Of a DNA stretch of 64,000 nucleotides, positions 22,149 to 33,818 are shown one piece after another. Source of the DNA: Protoeuglena noctilucae (lineage: Eukaryota). Position numbers and translations under genes: made by a program. A model generated the notes under the pieces. It was given only the letters and a program-made list of their open reading frames with translations. It was not told the origin of the DNA and searched no databases. The stretch spans positions 1,426,001 through 1,490,000 of the forward strand of contig OY253671.1 in NCBI GenBank assembly GCA_958009085.1. Reading direction: 5' to 3'. The first letter of the stretch is position 1; each line of letters starts with the position of its first letter.

Positions 22149-24319
<2,171 letters not shown>

Positions 24320-24759
24320 CGCCCCCGTACCCTATCCCCGGACAGCCCGAAGAGGAAGAAGAGCTCCAGGGATGCCACCCCCGGCCGACCGCGGCCTGCG
24401 ATGCGTGCTGGCGACGATCTCTCGCGCTGTGCTGCCGATGATGCAATCCGAGGACGCGGACAGGTGGCGTTACTGCAGAGGAATCGCGGGGTGGACGGCA
24501 CGCGGGGGGATTTCCGCTTCCTCGACATGTCAGAAACACAAACTGTCAGAACGGACCTTCGCTGCGCCAAACCACGAAACGTTGGCAGCGCTTGCTCGCA
24601 TTCGCATCGAGTAGCGCTTCCAGGGTGGATGAGGGCGTAGAAGTAGTGTGGGAGGATATTTAGGAAAATAGATAGGGTTTGGGGACCGGAGGATAGGAAT
24701 AGCTCGCACGATCGACTTGACATTGCGCTGCGCTGCGCGGTCCCGACTCTTGGCCTATC

Positions 24760-27700
24760 ATGGCTCGAAGACGAGCGTGGGGGACCTCTCCCTCTTCGCC
24801 GCTCTTGTTCTTTTCTCTCATTTGCTGGCTGGCGCTCTGCGCTCTGTCCGAATGGTCGTCGGTGGACTTGGATGTGCGGCAAGGCGTGTCCATCTCGCTA
24901 GGCCGGTGAGATGCCGGCACACCCAAACATGCAAGGGACGAGTGCGGCCGGGCGGAGGAAGAATCCGCGAATCCCTTTGTCCAATCGCGCTTTCATCAGC
25001 TTCGCGCTCGCCTGGTCTCACAGCGCGACGGCGGAATCCAACGCCAGCACCGACGCCATCCAGTATGCGGGGACCGTCTGCGACGAGGCTGGGGAGTCCC
25101 CGCACACCGTCCTGCTGCGCCCCGACATGGAGGAAGTCACGCGGCAGGCGAAGCTCTCTTCCGCCGTAGACTCCAGCTACTTTGGCCCCGAATCCGTCGT
25201 CTCCGGTAAGCAGGATTGCGCCGCTGGTTCGCCGCAAAGGCATTGCTGCCCCCGGCGGGTCCGGGACGGTCGGCGCGCCCCGGCTCCCCGCAGCCTCTTT
25301 AACGCTGTGGATCAATCGGATGAGCGACACCTCGGACACTCTGGAGGTCTTCCGCAGCGCGGGGGACTGGGGCGCTGCCACTACCTACGTCGACGGAAAC
25401 GCTTGCTGTACGCCGGACAGGCTCCTAACAAGGGTCCCGCTGGCTGACGTGGCGCCAGACGACTGGCAGCGTCTGACTTTCGACGTGGCGACCGTGCTGC
25501 CAACGTGGATCAGGTGCGCCAGGGCTGCATGCATGCCCAGGGATGGGACACTGGAGTCACCCGCTCGCTTCCATGAATGCCTCCGCCTCCCTGCACGCAG
25601 CCATCCCCTGTCTGCGGGCTTTGTGCTGCGCGTGCAGCAGAGGCCGGGCACCGGGTGCGTCGACTCGCGCGTCGCTGTGGCGTCCTTCTACCAGCCCCCA
25701 GCCATGGGGGAGTACAAACCTGCGCTGCGCGGTACCGTGAGGGCAGATGGCGTGCCTCCGAAGGCCAGGGTGCTCTATCCAAGCGCCGCAACAGGTGGGG
25801 CGCCATCGCACCGGTGCCCGTGACGGGTAACGCGCAACTTCCACCGTCACAGTGCCACCCCGTGCTCCCTGCAGGGGGCTTTGTGTCTCGCGACGACGTG
25901 TGGCTGTACCTGGCTGTGGAGGAGCACGAGTCGGGGTTGTCCCACTTCGAGTGCGCCCTCTCCAACGACCCGGCGCAGCAATACCGCACATGTCCCGTGG
26001 ACCGGGACAACCCTCTCAAGATCAATCTCAAGAGCGTCAAGCTCCCGGCCGGGGCGTGGGTGCGTCGCTGCAAGGGCCGGCTGGGCGCGCCGTGCGCAGC
26101 TGCACCCTGCGTGTAGCACATCCACCTCGCGCCGGACCCCTCCTCGTAGTCGCTGCTGGTGCGGGCCGTGGACAGGGCCGGGAACCAGGGCTCCACGTTG
26201 TCGGTCCCCTTCAAGGTCGACGACACCTCGCCCGTGCTGCAGTTCATGTCGCCCCCCGCCTCCACGGTGTCTGGCAGCATCCTCTTACAGGTCAGGGCCC
26301 CTTGGGCGAAGCGGCGCCGTATGGCGAGGTGTGCACGGCTCACCTTTCAGAGCCACCCCCTCCGCAGATGACTGTGTCGGACACTCACAGCGGGGCGGGG
26401 CCAATCCACTGCGGGCTCAACCCCGCCGTGGACGTGGCGCCCGAGACGCTGTGGGGGAAGCTGGGCGAGTGCCCAGCCCAGATGTCCTACTCTAACCTGC
26501 CGCTGGGCCGACACGTGTTTGTAGCCGTCGCCACGGACAGGGCCGGCAACAAGTCCGCCGTCCTCAGGTGCGGGGGCAGAGACGATTGCAACACACAGCG
26601 TTGCTCCGGCATGCCGAGCTTGTGTACCACTGCCCCCGCCATCCGCCCCACCGTCGCAGGCACGAGTTCACGGTCAGCCGCGGCCCCGAGGGCCGCGTGG
26701 AGTTCCTGGAGGCGTCGCGCGAGGCCATGTCCTTCTGGGTGCACTTCACGGACCCGGTGGACTCCCTGGAGCCGCGCTGTGTGGTTGCCAACGTGGGGTT
26801 CATGATTGAGGGGTGGCTGGACGTGAAGGCCATGGAGAAGCTCGACGACGGCAAGGTGCGTGGGCTGCCTGGCCCGGCACGCGGCTTACCAGGGGGCATG
26901 GCGTGGGTGCCGGGTGGAGAGCGGCCTCTCGTCGCCCATCCCCGCAGAAGTGGTCCGTCCAGGGCGTGCCCGGGGCGCGCATCCTGCAGCACCTCGCCGC
27001 GGCTCCCGTCAGCGTGCTCGTCCAGCACCACTGCCTGGTGGCGAGGGCGGGCGGGCGCGTGGTGGCACATGGGGAGACGCCCATCCCGGTCGACCTGCGC
27101 CCCATCCAGTGCTCGGGGGCGGGCCCCGCTCACGCCGACCTCGGTCAGCCCTTCACGGCGCGCTTCGACGTGAGCAAGGCCGGCGTGGTCCCCGCCTCCC
27201 TCGAGCGTTTGCTGGTCGAGGCTTCGGCCGGGCAGGAGGCGGGGAGGGTGCTGGACATCAGGCGAGGGGGGCGGACGAGCGCCAGCATGCGAGCTTGCCC
27301 GCTGGCCCAGGAGAGGTCGGCCACGGCACCGCGTGTTGGGCCTCCACAGGGTCGAGGACCGGCAGGTGGTGGTGACGGCCGTGGCGCACGAGGCTGGGGA
27401 CGCGGTGGTCAAGCTTCTGCCCGGGTCTCTGGTGAGGGTGGCGCGTAGTGGACAAGCAGGCGACGCAGCGTGGGCTGTACTCTGCAACAACCGCACGACG
27501 CCCCCACCTCTTGCAGCTGGACAAGCTGGGCAACACCCTCAATGCCGACTGCGTGACGCGGCCCGTGACGGTGCACCGCGGGGGCCGCCTGTCGACGTCC
27601 TCCTCCGGCGTCCTGCACCTCGGCAACGTGGCGGGCTCGGCGGGGGTGGCCGTCCCGGGATCGCGGGTTGCCTCGCATCTCCTGGCGGCCTCGTTTGGGA

Positions 27701-29365
27701 ACCGCGTGGCCCAGCCCGTGGCGGATGGGGACGGCGTGGCCGTCGCCGTGCACACCCTCTCGGGCCGGCCCCTGTGGCTGGCGGTGGGGACGCTCGAGCG
27801 CGTGTCGGCGCTGGCCGTGGGGCCCTCGGGCGACGTGCTGGTGGCGGACGGCGAGGCGCTGACGCTCGCCCTGCTGGGCGCGGACGGCCAGCTGGCGGCG
27901 CGGGCCGGCCCCGCCCTGCAGAGCCGGCCCCTGGAGTCCTTTGACGACCTCGTCGACGAGGCCCTGGGGGCGGCGGCGCGGCGGGGCGAGGGGGAGGGGG
28001 AGGGCCCCGGGTCCGAGGCGCTGCTGCGATCCGCGGGCTCCTCCGCGCCGGTCCCCTCGGAGGGCGTGGCGTCCCTGCAGGAGCACCTCCTGGAGAGCGT
28101 GTCGTTCGTGCATGCCGACGCGAGGGGGTTCTGGTACGTGGGCGAGACGGCGCAGGGGCGCGTGGTGGTCCTGGACGAAGGCCTGGCCCTGGTGGCCGTC
28201 CTGGCGCGGTGGGGCTGCGAGGGGCAGGAGGCGCAGGGGGCGGTCCTCGGGGCACCGGTGGGCGTGGCAGTCGACGGCCGAGGGCGCGTGTGGGTGGCGG
28301 ACAGGGACGCGGGGCTCGTGATTGCGTTCGACTCGCTGCACGACTTCAGCCCCGTCGCAGGTGAGCCGGGTGGGGCTTGTCTGGCTGAGGGGCCGGCGCG
28401 CGTGGCGCAATCTGACGTGACTTGGTGCCGTGGCTCCCCGCGCAGTGGTGGGGCCGCGGGGACACGTAATTGTCGAGGACCTCTGCAACCAGGCGGACCT
28501 GCGCAGCGCAGCCGTGGCGAGGGTCGGCGCCTTCACGGCTCTGGAGGGTGTGGCTGAGGTGGGGCAGCGGGCAGCCAAGAGCTCCCAGTCCATGCTGACT
28601 GGCCGCGCACGTGACATTGTTCTCTGTTCGCATGCTACAGCTTGCCGCCAGCCGTGTCCCCAGGTCGACGCCACCACCGCCTGGGTGCTGGTGGGCGGGG
28701 CGGACGGCCGCCGTCTCCTGACGCTCGACACGGCGACCTGGCGCGTGGAGGAAGGGCCCGGGCACCCCGTGGCTGCCGATGAGCACGCTGTCCACTCCCT
28801 GCGCTTCTTCCGTGCCCCGGAGCTCGTGGGTGAGCGTGCGGGGGCGTGCCTGGGTGTGCGGGATCAGGCCCAAGCGGGTCATCACCCGTTGCCGCTTACT
28901 TCTCAAGTATCCTTGCTCCATGCACCCGCAGCTATCGGTCCCGAGGGCGGCTCTGACCAGTCGGGCCCCTTCCGCGTGTCCTTCACGTGGTCCGAGGCTG
29001 TGGAGGGCTTTGACGCCGAGGACGTCCACGTGGGGGGCATCGGGGGCACCCTGTCGCCGCTGGCGACGGAGGACGGGATTACGTTCACCAGGCGAGCGAT
29101 GGCGCGCCTCACCCCGCGCCCCGTGCTGGCAGCTTGCACTGTGCCCGCACTGGGCCGGCATTGAGCCTGTAGCCCAGGCCTCCCCTCCTGCAGCACCGTC
29201 TCTCCCCGCGGCGTGGGCGCCCTGACCCTCAAGGTCCTCCCCGGCTCGGTCACCTCCCTCGCGGGCCTGGCCAACCTGCTTCCCAGCGACACCGTCCGCG
29301 TGCGCTTCAGCGGGGGGCGGTGCGCGGCCGAGATGTCCTGCCAGTGGTCGCTGGCTTTCTACGAG
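24760..29365 (+). CDS. Signal-peptide, multi-domain region (DNRLRE/CBM96-like, several Ig-like repeats, NHL beta-propeller); probably the N-terminal part of a fusion with the downstream ATAD3 module
   Basis: MARRRAWGTSPSSPLLFFSLICWLALCALS signal-like start; VVSASLTLW...EVFRSAGDWGAATTY; Ig-like VRAVDRAGN and VATDRAGN strands; NHL motifs ALAVGPSGDVLVAD and PVGVAVDGRGRVWVADR; terminal Ig FRVSFTWSEAVEGFDAEDV. If unspliced at 29366 the frame stops at 29380. Confidence 0.7.
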
Positions 29366-29463
29366 GCGAGGGCGCTGTAGGGCGTCAAAGCGGTCATGGA
29401 ACAAGCAGCTGGGGCGCTGATCGATCCCATGGCCAGCGCTGCCCGTGTCCCTTGTGCCCGCAG

Positions 29464-31917
29464 CACGAGCTGGCCATGGACCGGCTTCGGGTGGAGGCCA
29501 CGCTGCAGAAGCAGGCGATGGTGGCGGCGGAGATGGAGGCGGCGAGGGTGCGGGTGCAGGAGGAGCGGGCGCTGGGGCAGGAAAGGGAGGCGCAGGAGCG
29601 GCGGCTGGGGCAGGTGAGGGGAGGGGCGTGGGACTATGGATGAGCGAGGCATGCTGGGGGCGGTAACGAGGGTGTCCGCGGCATCGCAGGTCCGGTTGGA
29701 GGCGGATGCGGCGAGGGAGAGCGCGAGGGTCGAGGCGGAGCGGCAGGCGGCGCTGGCACGCGCGGACGTAGAGAGGCAGTTGATGGAGGAGGTGAGTGGA
29801 GAGGCAGATGATGGAGGAGGTGAGTGGAGAGGGAGTTGATTGAGGGGGTGAGGCCGTGGCAGGGGCCGGCAGGTGCTGGCACAGCGTGGCTGGCCGGCCT
29901 TGAATGGACCGGCGAGCATCCGGCTCCCTGCCCCGCCCGCAGCGTCTGGAGCAGGAGCGGCTGGTGCGTGAGATGGACGTGGCCGCTGCGGCAGAGAAGG
30001 CGAAGGCGGAGGCGGCGGCGCGGGTGGCGGAGAAGGAGGCGACGCAGCACCTGGAGCTTGAGCAGATCAAGGCGCAGGGCGCCACGCAGTCGGGCGCCTA
30101 CGTGGCGGCGGTGCTGGCGGGGCTCTCCGCGGCGGGCAAGGGCCTCCTCGCCACGCTCAGCAGCCCCACGCACCTTCGGCAGCTGGCCGTGGCCTTCGGG
30201 GTGTTTGCCGCCCTCTACTTCTCCGCGAAAGAGACTGCGAGGCGAGGACTGCGAGGAGCAGCGGGCACCCGACTGCACAGCGACTGCAACGTCAGGTTGG
30301 CAATCGCACCTGGGGCCTAACCCTCACCCCTACCCCGCCGCCGCAGAGTGGTGAGCGAGCAGGCCTCCCGGCTGCTCAGCCAGCCGCCTCTGGTGCGCGA
30401 GACCACCGTCGGGTGGCTGCAGATGCTGCGGCGGTGGGCACGCGGCCTGTCCCGCCGCACCGATGACCCCAGGCACGCCCTCGACGAGGTCATCCTGCCA
30501 GGCAACCTCCACAGCCGCATGGCGGCCCTGGCCAAGACGGTGGCGCAGGTGGGGGCATGACCCTGGCAGGGAGCATAGGGGTGGACAGGGCCACGTGTTT
30601 CCGGACCGGTGCCCACGCCCTGCAACGCAGACCAAGGCGCATGGCGCGCCCTTTCGCCACGTGCTGCTCTACGGCCCGCCCGGGACGGGGAAGACCATGG
30701 CGGCCACGCGGCTGGCGCGGGGATGTGTGATGGACTACGCCGTCATGTCGGGGGGGGACGTGCTCCCCCTGGGCACGGACGCCGTGCAGGAGCTGAACAA
30801 GCTCTTCGCGTGGGCCAAGTCCTCCCGCCGCGGCCTGGTGCTCTTCATCGACGAGGCCGACGCCTTCCTGCGCAAGCGCGGGGCCACGGGCAACGGCCGC
30901 ATGGGCGCGCCCAGCGAGAACCTGAGGGCGGCCATCAACGCCCTCCTGGCGCACACGGGCACGCAGCAGAGCCACTTCATGATGGTCCTGGCCAGCAACC
31001 GCCCCCAGGACCTGGACGACGCCGTCATGGACCGCATTGACGAGACGGTCGGGTTCCCCAAGCCCGCCCTGCCCCAGCGCGAGGCCATGCTGCGCAAGTA
31101 CTTCCGCGAGTACATCGGGCGCGTGCCCGACCGCAAGGAGACGGTGCGGTACGGGCCCTTGGGCATCTTCGAGGCCCAGGTGGAGCCCTACCAGGCCGCG
31201 ATACCCGACGCAGGTGGGACGCGATGTGACGGGGGTGGGCCGAGATGCATGTTCGCTCGCAGCCGGTGTGACCGGCGGAACGCGCGGGTCCCTCCCCGCC
31301 CCCGCAGGCTTTAAGAGGTGGTCCTGGGAGCAGTGGCGGTTCGTGCCGCGCGCGGTGCGGCTGGTGGACATCACCGACGCGCTCTTCAAGGAGGCTGCCA
31401 TCGCCACGGACGGCTTCTCGGGCCGCGAGATGGCGAAGCTCATGGCCGCGGTGCAGGCCAAGGTGAGCGCGGCGGAGAGCAGCCACAAGAATGCGCGATG
31501 CGTGGGCCGGCAAGCGCGTGCACGCCTCGAGCGCTCTGTCTCATCTCATCCCCCCAGGTCTACTGCAGCCAGGACGAGGGCGGGACGATGTCACTGGACG
31601 CGCGCACCATGCTATCCGTCATCCGCCAGAAGGTGGCCGAGCACGGGGAGAAGGAGCACTTCATGGCAGAGGACGGGAACCCGCAGCCGTCGCCGCCCCT
31701 GACGCCCCCGCCCCTGGCAGCAGGGGGCGGCAAAGTGAGTTGCAGACCCCAGCACAAGGGAGACCCATGCGCACAGGCGATGTGCAGGGCGTCAACCCTC
31801 TCATATCCTGCATATCCCTCGATTCGCTCGCAGGTGGGCGACCGCAGGAAGAGGGGCGGATCGCGCGCCTTCGCGGAGCCGGCCGGCGCAGAGGACGGGC
31901 AGGGCGACGAGGAGTGA
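29464..31917 (+). CDS. ATAD3: ATAD3-like module: coiled coil, TM segment and AAA+ ATPase
   Basis: QPPLVRETT, PFRHVLLYGPPGTGKTM (Walker A), DYAVMSGGDVLPLG, GLVLFIDEADAFL (Walker B), LASNRPQDLDDAVMDRIDE, TDGFSGREMAKL. No canonical ATAD3 N-terminus or room for a separate promoter upstream. Confidence 0.9.
29771..29853 (+). repeat. 28-bp tandem repeat, three copies, spanning a 5' splice site
   Basis: gagaggcagttgatggaggaggtgagtg / gagaggcagatgatggaggaggtgagtg / gagagggagttgattgagggggtgagg. Confidence 0.9.
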
Positions 31918-32114
31918 CGTGGCCCCCAGGGGAGACAGGCGTGACCCGTGGTCCCTCCACCCCGCGCGCCTTTGAAGTGTTGATAACTGTGCCACCTCCC
32001 TCATGACATGGGCCTGCCCTGTGCGTCCCCCTCCCGGTCCATTGAGGGCGGGTCCCCATCCCCCTCCATCAGCCGCCGACGCCGTGGGCGCACCTGCGGG
32101 AAACACTGCTCTCG

Positions 32115-33818
32115 TCAGAGCCCGCTGCCTGTCCAGCACACGAAGCCAAACATGCCTCCGCCCCTCGCCTTGTTCGGGAACCATGGCAGCTGCGTCTGGT
32201 CCGTGTTGCGCTCCGGGATCTGGGCCTCAAGCTCCACCATGCGACTGCGCGAGAGGGGTGCGTGAGAACAGTGCGGTCGACAGGAGCTAGGACAGCAATA
32301 GTGGTTCGAACACGTTACATGGTCCCCCATCGTAAGACGATGCTCGCTCACCGGTGCAGGCGCGCCGTGATTTGAGCCCAGAGCTCCGGCCGGCTGCCCC
32401 CCGCGCACGCGCACTTGCGAAGCAGATCGCTGACGTCCACGGGCTCGCCCACGTTCACCGTCACGCGATTGCCCACCCTCGGGACGCGCGCCTTGGCCGG
32501 CATGACGTCGCCCATCCCCGTGTGGAAGATGGGCAGCACGAGCGGGAAGGCCCTGTCGCTGCACCCGCCGATGGGCTCCGCGGGGAAACGCGGTTGGTCG
32601 CTTGCGCTCGCGTCGCTGTCGCCCCCGCCCGCACTTGCGCTCTCTGCCGCCTCCTGTCGGTGCCTCGCATGCGCCGCCATGGCAGCCTCCCAGTACCCAT
32701 CTGCAGCTAGTAGCATCCAAAAAAGTCAGTTTCTGCCCCACCGCGTCGCCCGCCGCCTCCCCAGCCCCCTCGCACGCGCTCGCCTGGGTACGGGAAGGGC
32801 TTGACAGGCGCGTGGTGGCGGGACGCCACGGTCGAGACGTCCTGGCCCGTGAACTCTGCCTCCACGGCGTCGCAGAGGACGCGGCCGATGCCCCAGCGAA
32901 ATTGGCTGACCCGGCCGTCGTAGTTGACGCGGCCCTGGGGGCACGGGTACGCATGAGGCCTGGCAGTCACCCATGCGCCCCATGCGGCAGAGAGGCAACC
33001 GAGATGACGCGCGCTCACCTCCGCGAAGATGTGCACCCAGTCGCCGTCCACCACGCGCCGCGTGGCCGCACCCACGCACGGCTGCTGGGTGCCCATGCCC
33101 CGCTCCACCGGCACCACCTTGCCGTGACGGAAGAAGTGGGTCAGCACGGGGTGCCCGAAGCAGTACTCGCGCGCGCACAGCGACCATCTCCCTGCGTGGT
33201 GCGAGGGGGCGCGTCCGGCAGCACGCGACGGCGCGGCAGGCAGCGTGGGCGGCGGCCACAGAAGCGCACCTCGTCGATGGATGGACTCCCCCGCCCAGAA
33301 GCTCAGCGGCATGAGGCTCGCCAGGACCCCGGGATCGTCGAACGTGCTCACATGGTTGCTATACGTCACCAGCGCGCGGTTGCCGCGCCGGAGGACGGCG
33401 TCCCTGCGAGGCACGAGTGCAGGCGAAGCGTCGCTAGCACCTCCGCGAGTAGTTTGCGATGGAGCACCACATGCCCATGCCCTTGTCCCTCACTGAATGG
33501 CCTCGGCGTTGCGGAACTCCGTCTGATTCAGCAATCGCGGCAGCGTGTGGCTGATGGCCGCCACGGACACGAGCACGAAGTCCCGGACCCTGCGTGCGCG
33601 GGGCACATCCGCAATTACCGGGGCGCGACTTGCCACCAAACCCGTTCCTCAGCACGGGAGGCATCGCATGGATCCGGAATATACTTGCACGGATACCGCT
33701 GAGCAACTGTCCGGCCCAGCGCCCCTCCCGGCTCGCGTGGCCCGCACCTCCCCCCCCACGGCGGACGGCAGAAGTCGTCGTCAAAGAAGAGCGGCGTCTC
33801 TTGGGCGATGTCGTCCAT
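32115..33818 (-). CDS. TAZ: Tafazzin/NAPE-synthase-like phospholipid acyltransferase
   Basis: MDDIAQETP...RPPWGG start; LVTYSNHVSTFDDP (HxxxxD motif), RWSLCAREYCF, GDWVHIFAEGRV, FRWGIGRV, VLPIFHTGMGDVMP. Confidence 0.88.

Follow-up and report, generated by a model that had tools for sequence, protein, structure and literature searches.

The question raised by positions 24,760 to 31,917 of the 64,000-nucleotide stretch of Protoeuglena noctilucae DNA analyzed here (contig OY253671.1, positions 1,426,001 to 1,490,000; "the window" in the following) is whether the adhesin-like ectodomain and the ATAD3-type AAA+ ATPase encoded there in succession belong to one gene or to two. ATAD3 is a mitochondrial inner-membrane AAA+ protein, and its N-terminus decides what it touches. 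The original prediction, made from the sequence alone, had read a single gene. This reading was borne out by splice joints in RNA, by alignments to related proteins that cross the junction in one high-scoring segment pair (HSP), and by uninterrupted open reading frames (ORFs) in other contigs. It is virtually certain that 24760–31917 on the plus strand is one gene of 23 exons, in which an ectodomain is fused to an ATAD3 module. The alignments and trees described below place it in a conserved clade of green-algal ATAD3 paralogues, an old family and not a quirk of one genome. For the fused gene and this family assignment taken together, with the membrane topology discussed below as the leading but unproven reading, we estimate a probability of about 0.8. 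The window has a GC content of 60–76% and is intron-rich, as in green algae. The gene and the intron at the fusion point are as follows:

24760–31917, plus strand: whole coding region (23 exons, 22 introns of 76–151 nt, coding sequence of 5067 nt, 1688 amino acids).
29366–29463, plus strand: intron 15 (98 nt, GC-AG, in-frame stop codon at 29378–29380, RNA joint).

The frame of the Ig-like and NHL domains runs to SLAFYE at 29365, is followed by gcgagg, and, if left unspliced, stops at the TAG at 29378–29380. The sequence gctgat is located at ~29417, the acceptor tcccttgtgcccgcag ends at 29463, and exon 16 opens at 29464 with HELAMDRLRVE. The elements named beforehand at 29365, 29380, and 29463, together with the GCGAG donors after 27261, 29091, and 30241, all lie where the original prediction had put them.

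Eight public sequencing runs contain the stretch. Four of them are RNA runs, all from one marine metatranscriptome study, and these contain a fraction of 0.32–0.57 of the sampled words, which is approximately the exon share. Contigs of three RNA runs (X1, X2, and X3) and one DNA run (X5) were aligned to positions 23500–33500. The joint over intron 15 was recorded as 29363>29462 (98 nt skipped, two ambiguous letters), which resolves to GC..AG at 29365|29464. It is present in two spliced contigs, one from X2 (2200 nt, depth 18.5) and one from X3 (2371 nt, depth 14.3), the shorter flank of the joint being 148 letters long. The RNA across 29365/29464 that had been proposed as a check was thus found in two runs, and the 98-nt GC-AG intron is removed from it exactly as predicted. 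Both contigs run from ~28265–28272, within exon 11, into the AAA+ exons and also carry the joints of five neighboring introns (11–14 and 16); two further joints were found in other RNA contigs:

28360|28446, plus strand: RNA joint of intron 11, GT-AG, X2 and X3 contigs.
28558|28664, plus strand: RNA joint of intron 12, GT-AG, X2 and X3 contigs.
28829|28932, plus strand: RNA joint of intron 13, GT-AG, X2 and X3 contigs.
29091|29194, plus strand: RNA joint of intron 14 (29092–29193), GC-AG, X2 and X3 contigs.
29613|29690, plus strand: RNA joint of intron 16, GT-AG, X2 and X3 contigs.
31462|31558, plus strand: RNA joint of intron 21, other RNA contigs.
31734|31834, plus strand: RNA joint of intron 22, other RNA contigs.

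According to the record positions of the two junction contigs, exons 17–20 are present as modeled. These positions give a length of 102 nt for exon 17 and of 202 nt for exon 19, and thereby confirm the GC donor that follows 30241. The DNA run X5 covered the stretch in one piece and displayed none of these splice joints; as the assembly may have been built from this run, X5 is not independent evidence against a mis-join. One RNA contig of X3 departs from the reference at 29226, within exon 15, with 16 unmatched letters, for which a minor splice variant or an assembly artifact is possible. A 28-nt tandem duplication with one mismatch (29772–29827) copies the donor of exon 17, GAG|GTGAGT. The first copy is the one used, as calculated from the RNA contigs; with the second, the exon would be 28 nt longer and the frame would be shifted.

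In the gene model, introns 11–16, 21, and 22 were taken from RNA joints and introns 17–19 from the record-position arithmetic, while the others were set by the open frame and a gap-free alignment to L004, a metagenome locus described below. Phase is kept across all 23 exons, between the ATG at 24760 and the TGA at 31917, which is the single, terminal stop. The alignment to L004 showed no gap at any covered modeled junction except that of exons 4 and 5, where the model was 21 residues short. The donor 25731|25732 of exon 4 was rejected because this gap is filled by the window's own read-through. The donor was set at 25794|25795, where a GTGGGG donor ends the read-through, and the matches of the N-terminal part to the relatives improved. 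GC donors are present in four of the 22 introns of the model, and GC-AG introns were unusually frequent among the listed RNA-supported joints (4 out of 14), two of them belonging to a neighboring minus-strand gene. GC-AG introns usually account for ~1% of introns in eukaryotes. The GC sites are the following:

29091|29194 and 29365|29464, plus strand: GC..AG RNA joints of the fusion gene.
After 27261 and after 30241, plus strand: further GCGAG donors of the gene model.
32092|32168 and 32700|32784, minus strand: GC..AG RNA joints of the neighboring gene.

When longer proteins were searched with the AAA exon, most of the matches were canonical ATAD3 proteins of ~600 amino acids; long relatives with the same extra domains as the window protein were also retrieved. 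The same fusion, for which a search in algae had been suggested, was found in Pedinophyceae sp. YPF-701, in Chlorokybus atmophyticus, and in metagenomes. The relatives and loci are as follows (P, proteins; L, metagenome loci):

P0001: Pedinophyceae sp. YPF-701 "unnamed protein product", 1618 amino acids, full fused architecture.
P0005: Chlorokybus atmophyticus Chlat1/5091, 1463 amino acids, full fused architecture.
P0002, P0021, P0044, P0241, and P0242: metagenome proteins, fused relatives.
L003: uninterrupted ORF of 1501 amino acids, cut by the end of the locus.
L004: ORF of 850 amino acids from the end of the propeller to the AAA domain, 77% GC, closest relative.
L005: uninterrupted ORF of 1427 amino acids.
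L006: uninterrupted ORF of 1619 amino acids, identical to P0241 from M122.

The spliced model aligned across the junction in one HSP per relative (P0002, E 4e-134; P0005, E 3e-131; P0001, E 5e-122; relatives of 1308–1618 amino acids) and to the same three proteins over its N-terminal third as well. The fused relatives share with the window protein the order of parts from the leader to the AAA+ domain, the junction motif, and the truncation point of ATAD3_N. Identity to the window protein amounts to 33–40% over the C-terminal ~840 residues and 23–27% over the N-terminal part; in the window protein, the coiled coil is longer and the propeller contains a low-complexity insert. P0002 differs in that its leader passes directly into an Ig-like domain, without a DNRLRE region.

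A degenerate pattern of the junction motif led to nine metagenome loci, five of which encode the fusion collinearly; L001, L002, L007, and L009 had no tblastn match to the model and were dismissed as chance matches. In L003, L005, and L006, the fusion is encoded without introns in one uninterrupted ORF that contains Big_13, Big_12, the propeller, ATAD3_N (101–265), and AAA. CBM96 was weak in the ORFs of L005 and L006, and none was found in that of L003. These three loci are marine-type contigs with a GC content of 57–69%, and their intronless fusion compares with 22 introns in the window gene. The L005 ORF starts within the DNRLRE-like domain and lacks a leader, so that an upstream exon is likely to be present there. 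In L004, an ORF of 1612 amino acids was rejected as partly a GC-rich artifact (only a weak NHL match in Pfam); the actual gene of this locus is spread over two frames.

An exhaustive HMMER search with the fragment P0003 retrieved 473 proteins at E <1e-30. Only six of the best 150 match through the part comprising Big_12 and the junction, which indicates that the fused clade is small. A search with the junction region of P0005 yielded, apart from the query, a single leucine-rich-repeat protein that is unrelated, and is no measure of family size; nor is a profile search with the family alignment, which was swamped by bacterial repeat proteins. The ESM Atlas gave no usable match, and none of the 53 pattern matches of a P0002-based search of metagenome contigs was confirmed.

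At the fusion point, the agreement extends to single residues. In the family alignment, the Cys loop is invariant, and the junction motif GGxCx5CQWxLAxYE-HELA falls at the exact splice site and is invariant or nearly so among the relatives; the window protein carries it as GGRCAAEMSCQWSLAFYE|HELAMDR. The 850-residue ORF of L004 reads GGQCAAEMSCQWRLAEYQHELALERLR straight through the junction, in genomic DNA, and continues into ATAD3_N and AAA. The match of the spliced junction is far beyond chance: splicing recreates a conserved motif that L004 encodes without a break. In the junction alignment, canonical ATAD3 aligns from LARYEDELARKR onward. The ATAD3 homology therefore starts inside exon 15, upstream of intron 15, which by itself excludes two adjacent genes. 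In such a pair, the adhesin-like gene would end with the stop at 29380, the ATAD3 gene would be a short one beginning at the methionine codon at 29476, and the joined contigs would be read-through transcripts or assembly chimeras. There is indeed an in-frame ATG at 29476. Contig depth is also lower over the 5' half (in X2, ~1–3 at the 5' end and ~12–18 at the 3' end), though these figures, with one value per contig, cannot rank parts of the gene; an internal start near 28265, considered from the same depths, was set aside for this reason. The pair is contradicted by the precise, frame-restoring GC-AG excision in two runs and by the relatives, which encode the junction within one ORF. Moreover, coding exons upstream of the junction make up at least 1.1 kb of the junction contigs, no ATG is in frame between ~28265 and the methionine codon in exon 15, and the window lacks a canonical ATAD3 N-terminus. 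Two separate genes are, in practice, refuted.

The single gene might still yield a second product. Retention of intron 15 would lead to a stop at 29380 after five extra residues and thus to a soluble, secreted ectodomain without coiled coil, anchor, and ATPase. The in-frame stop 13–15 nt into the intron fits such an isoform, and unspliced pieces over other introns occur in X1 (e.g., 28055–28427, 28679–28984, and 29619–30077). These pieces, however, have a depth of 3–6 and may be genomic DNA or pre-mRNA, and none of those listed covers intron 15. L003–L006 have no intron at this site and therefore cannot make such an isoform. We consider a second product of this kind unlikely.

The C-terminal ~580 residues of the window protein correspond to canonical ATAD3 (human ATAD3A/B; P0016 of Coccomyxa, 577 amino acids; P0048 of Chlorokybus, 597 amino acids) and comprise the following parts:

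29464–30101, plus strand: exons 16–18 (first part), ATAD3_N-type coiled coil, positions ~101–200 of Pfam ATAD3_N (Pfam, alignment).
30102–30233, plus strand: two hydrophobic segments, VAAVLAGLSAAGKGLLATL and LAVAFGVFAALYF, the ATAD3 membrane anchor (hydropathy peak 1.66).
30347–31917, plus strand: exons 19–23, linker, AAA+ core, lid, and acidic C-terminal tail (Pfam, motifs).
30673–30696, plus strand: Walker A motif GPPGTGKT.

Residues 1072–1628 (first numbering, i.e., that of the model preceding the revision of the exon 4 donor) align with residues 86–575 of P0016 with 36% identity (E 7e-87). ATAD3_N (PF12037) was recognized in exon 18 with E 1.5e-4 and 21.6 bits; with the domain divided over three exons, this score stays under the cut-off (25). 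The relatives score 58–79 bits. Basic residues and then the ATAD3 motif PPLVRET come after the hydrophobic segments, for which the corresponding hydropathy values of the relatives are 1.7–2.0. AAA (PF00004) was found in exon 20 with E 1.3e-24, and the identity of this exon is 64% to P0001 and 60% to P0016. Besides Walker A, the Walker B motif (VLFIDEAD), sensor 1 (LASN), and the arginine finger (DRID) are present, and the same residues are invariant in five family members; by its motifs, the AAA+ domain is catalytically intact.

Canonical ATAD3 and the window protein thus have in common the second half of ATAD3_N, the hydrophobic segments, P-x-LVRET, and the AAA+ motifs. In contrast to canonical ATAD3, the window protein lacks positions 1 to ~100 of ATAD3_N, including the FDPEALERGAKALRE block, which are absent from the model in the alignment. 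Its N-terminal side is extended by ~1100 residues, which comprise a leader resembling a signal peptide and domains rich in beta structure and Cys (1688 versus ~600 amino acids). That the usual ATAD3 N-terminus is missing had been observed before and holds for the gene as well as for the entire 64-kb window, where tblastn with five canonical N-termini gave a best E of 0.19. The truncation point is shared: in five of the 12 long proteins scanned (P0002, P0005, P0021, P0044, and P0025), the ATAD3_N match begins at profile position 101–102, as it does in the ORFs of L003, L005, and L006; it begins at 118 in L004 and at 144 in P0093. As judged from these alignments, the first ~85–100 residues of ATAD3 are replaced by ~1100 residues, with the fusion point a few residues upstream of intron 15. 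The replacement would comprise a leader, a DNRLRE/CBM96-like beta-sandwich, Ig-like repeats, an NHL propeller, and a final Big_12 domain with a Cys loop:

24760–24849, plus strand: signal-peptide-like leader, residues 1–30 (MARRR, a 15-residue hydrophobic core, ALS|EW; hydropathy 1.88 at residues 12–30).
25024–25794, plus strand: exons 2–4, DNRLRE/CBM96-like beta-sandwich region, ~residues 50–248 (alignment to P0005).
25875–27431, plus strand: exons 5–10, Ig-like repeats (Big_13/OmpL47-type and Big_12-type) with conserved Cys pairs (relatives, L006 model).
27517–28829, plus strand: exons 11–13, NHL-type beta-propeller with a low-complexity insert (GEGEGEG...; Pfam NHL).
28932–29365, plus strand: exons 14–15, last Big_12 Ig-like domain, Cys loop GGRCAAEMSCQW, and the first ATAD3-homologous residues, SLAFYE (Pfam, junction alignment).

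The list of domains predicted earlier was recovered in part within the window, where NHL, Big_12, and AAA were found with Pfam; DNRLRE was above the cut-off in relatives only. NHL was detected in exon 11 (E 1e-7, 32.1 bits, cut-off 20) and Big_12 in exon 14 (E 4.6e-8, 33.7 bits, cut-off 27). The per-exon scans with Pfam and NCBIfam gave nothing in exons 1–4 and in most short exons, and exons 5–10 gave weak matches only (Big_13, E 0.2). The correspondence of the window protein to a DNRLRE domain is based solely on the alignment of model residues 58–439 with residues 60–411 of P0005 (E 9e-15). The NCBIfam model DNRLRE_dom (cut-off 34) scored 56.1 bits for residues 46–214 of P0005 and 46.2 bits for the L005 ORF; these are two of five relatives, the score of P0001 being below the cut-off and L006 and P0242 having no match. 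CBM96 was weak and below the cut-off in P0021, L005, and L006 (E 2e-4 to 8e-4). Above the cut-offs in relatives were Big_13 (32.6 bits), Big_12 (72.2 bits), and, with NCBIfam, OmpL47-type barrel domains (52–67 bits) in P0005, P0242, and L005.

The leader was judged by hydropathy, and its cleavage site by eye with the −3/−1 rule. Strongly hydrophobic N-terminal leaders are also present in P0001, P0005, P0241, P0242, P0002, and P0025, and those of P0241 and P0242 resemble signal peptides. The ectodomain of 1105 residues contains 18 Cys residues, compared with 2 in the other 583 residues of the window protein, and several Cys columns are invariant across the family alignment. N-glycosylation sequons number 2–7 per ectodomain, a count that is uninformative.

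Structures were predicted with AlphaFold2 (AF2) for fragments of the relative L006, not for the window protein. Fragment 1 (predicted local distance difference test, pLDDT, 78.2) forms a beta-sandwich followed by three Ig-like domains (pLDDT >90), and fragment 2 (pLDDT 82.6; predicted template modeling score, pTM, 0.76) forms a propeller of ~27 strands followed by an Ig domain. In Foldseek, the nearest structures to fragment 1 were tandem Ig domains of adhesins (SiiE, PDB 2yn3, E 1.2e-7). The best match of fragment 2 was 1l0q, an archaeal S-layer YVTN propeller with a PKD domain (E 1.5e-13), followed by the NHL domains of TRIM71, Thin, and Brat. The TM-scores are low (0.2–0.45), and the likeness holds at the domain level only. 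In the profile search with the family alignment, bacterial Big_13 repeat proteins were retrieved before any eukaryotic protein, and of the family itself only P0021 and P0005 were found. Bacterial repeats of the Big_13/OmpL47 type, such as those of myxobacterial and actinobacterial surface proteins, are the nearest to the Ig-like repeats of the family. The likeness to prokaryotic surface proteins (1l0q, SiiE 2yn3, and Big_13 repeat proteins) concerns the fold and the order of the ectodomain parts in the L006 models, and the bacterial-built OmpL47-type and DNRLRE models score above their cut-offs on fused relatives. The prokaryotic proteins, unlike the fused protein, have neither an AAA+ ATPase nor an ATAD3 coiled coil. 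Such similarities hint at a possible bacterial origin of the ectodomain.

Two maximum-likelihood trees were calculated from the region between the coiled coil and AAA+; the root was not inferred. The first contained 40 rows, five of them fused, and left out P0021, P0044, P0025, P0093, P0102, and P0004 owing to a strict P-loop pattern. The second, with a looser P-loop pattern, took in P0021, P0044, P0025, and P0093 and comprised 33 rows, nine of them fused, with fewer canonical rows. The fused proteins, including the window protein, formed one clade separate from canonical ATAD3 in both trees (Shimodaira–Hasegawa-like approximate likelihood ratio test, SH-aLRT, 99), and within it P0001 and the window protein were sisters each time (support 92 and 98). 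The canonical ATAD3 proteins of green algae, among them P0048 of Chlorokybus and P0053 of Mesostigma, grouped in a clade of their own. In the first tree, this clade was the sister of the fused clade (support 91); in the second, the position of the fused clade was unresolved. By this branching, the fused protein is a paralogue and not an orthologue of canonical ATAD3. Because Chlorokybus has both forms, the duplication appears to be at least as old as the split between streptophytes and chlorophytes.

Other long N-terminal extensions, of 600–750 residues and without a Pfam match, were observed in P0020 (Cafeteria roenbergensis, 1314 amino acids), P0035, P0037, P0045, and P0059, whereas P0009 has a C-terminal SAP domain instead. 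In the extended proteins of the P0020 type and in P0009, ATAD3_N starts at profile position 46–87, and they form a clade of their own, from which it appears that the N-terminus of ATAD3 has been extended repeatedly.

With respect to topology, the hints are the hydrophobic leaders, the Cys-rich ectodomain, and folds resembling those of extracellular adhesins and S-layer proteins. We consider it moderately probable that the fused protein is a type I membrane protein. The leader would send the N-terminal part across the membrane of the endoplasmic reticulum (ER), so that the adhesin-like part with its many Cys residues, as well as the stalk formed by the coiled coil, would lie on the side of the lumen or the cell exterior. 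The hydrophobic segment would span the membrane and leave the AAA+ ring on the cytosolic side. ATAD3 has been reported to assemble through its coiled coil and AAA+ ring; an ATAD3-like assembly of the fused protein by the same elements would couple ATP hydrolysis inside to a multivalent binding structure outside. This arrangement would fit a more far-reaching scenario, which is possible but rather doubtful. An early green-lineage duplicate of ATAD3 would have left the mitochondrion and become a type I protein of the plasma membrane or the endomembranes. Its cytosolic AAA+ ring would drive, or be gated by, a hexameric adhesin-like extracellular stalk whose domains may be bacterial, so that the protein would act as an ATP-powered adhesion or sensing receptor. 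To our knowledge, no such receptor is known in any eukaryote.

The fusion could also be real and the protein nevertheless mitochondrial, with AAA+ in the matrix, the hydrophobic membrane segment in the inner membrane, the coiled coil and the beta-rich part in the intermembrane space, and the leader as an anchor, together an enlarged tether between inner and outer membrane. The N-terminus of ATAD3 reaches the mitochondrial outer membrane. The ATAD3 module is kept whole, from the coiled coil to PPLVRET and AAA+, the fused clade groups with ATAD3 sequences, and long N-terminal extensions of ATAD3 exist in other lineages (P0020, P0035, P0037, P0045, and P0059), all of which would suit a mitochondrial protein. 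The canonical proteins P0048 and P0047 themselves start with basic residues followed by a mildly hydrophobic stretch. The leaders of the fused proteins, however, are secretory-like, with a short n-region, a core of 15–19 residues (hydropathy 1.9–2.4), and small residues at −3 and −1, and that of P0005 has no basic residue before the core. Furthermore, the ectodomain consists of extracellular-type domains with conserved Cys pairs, and the part of ATAD3_N that was replaced is the very N-terminal one. A mitochondrial location is hence conceivable, but we hold it to be rather improbable. The receptor-like or organelle-tethering role suggested by the original prediction is putative.

Several points weigh against the fused type I protein as described here. 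The mildly hydrophobic start of canonical P0048 (hydropathy 1.75) means that an N-terminal hydrophobic segment alone is no proof of ER targeting. Exons 2–4 of the window had no Pfam or NCBIfam match in the per-exon scans, and the revised donor of exon 4 was set by homology alone. X2 and X3 are two samples of one study, and their support consists of assembled contigs. X1 displayed only unspliced pieces of low depth and none of the listed joints, no contig among those listed spans exons 1–23, and introns 1–10 and 20 are without a joint among the RNA joints listed.

Among known systems, proteins of the FtsH type are similar in that N-terminal segments hold an AAA+ ring at a membrane that has another domain of the protein on its opposite face. 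FtsH differs by its protease domain, its two membrane-spanning segments, and the small size of its domain in the periplasm. The NCBIfam model of FtsH scored 48–53 bits on the relatives, far under its cut-off of 600, so that the window protein is no member of this family. A full-text literature search found no paper describing ATAD3 fused to Ig, NHL, or signal-peptide parts. In PMC10735309, "ATAD3" denotes a tRNA deaminase subunit, and a passage of a preprint (bioRxiv 10.1101/2025.10.06.680775) states that ATAD3 orthologues exist in plants and algae, and nothing more. The architecture, which had been called unfamiliar, thus seems to be undescribed, its members being known only as unnamed predicted proteins. 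It is not unique to the window, as it is present, unnamed, in public predicted proteomes.

The fusion gene is flanked by two minus-strand genes:

22819–24472, minus strand: spliced protein kinase gene (Pkinase, E 2.8e-10; RNA joint 23666|24189).
32092–33500, minus strand: downstream neighbor, spliced acyltransferase gene (PF01553, E 2.9e-6).

The kinase gene ends ~290 bp from the ATG at 24760, and the gap (24473–24759) probably contains a divergent promoter region common to both genes. One X1 contig starts at 24678, preceded by 17 unmatched letters. The NHxSxxDDP-type motif of the acyltransferase is reminiscent of tafazzin-like enzymes.

A GC-AG intron with an early in-frame stop, such as intron 15, would lead most gene finders to split the gene in two, a point to be heeded in annotation. 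As the alignments and trees indicate, a whole green-algal clade, with members in Pedinophyceae, in marine picoplankton, and in Chlorokybus, an early-branching streptophyte, has retained a second ATAD3 whose N-terminus is swapped for an adhesin-like part of 1100 residues that begins with a signal-peptide-like leader. As a protein of the secretory pathway, it would be the first ATPase of the ATAD3 type outside mitochondria and would represent a new kind of receptor architecture; as a mitochondrial protein, it would form a very large structure in the intermembrane space, which would also be new.

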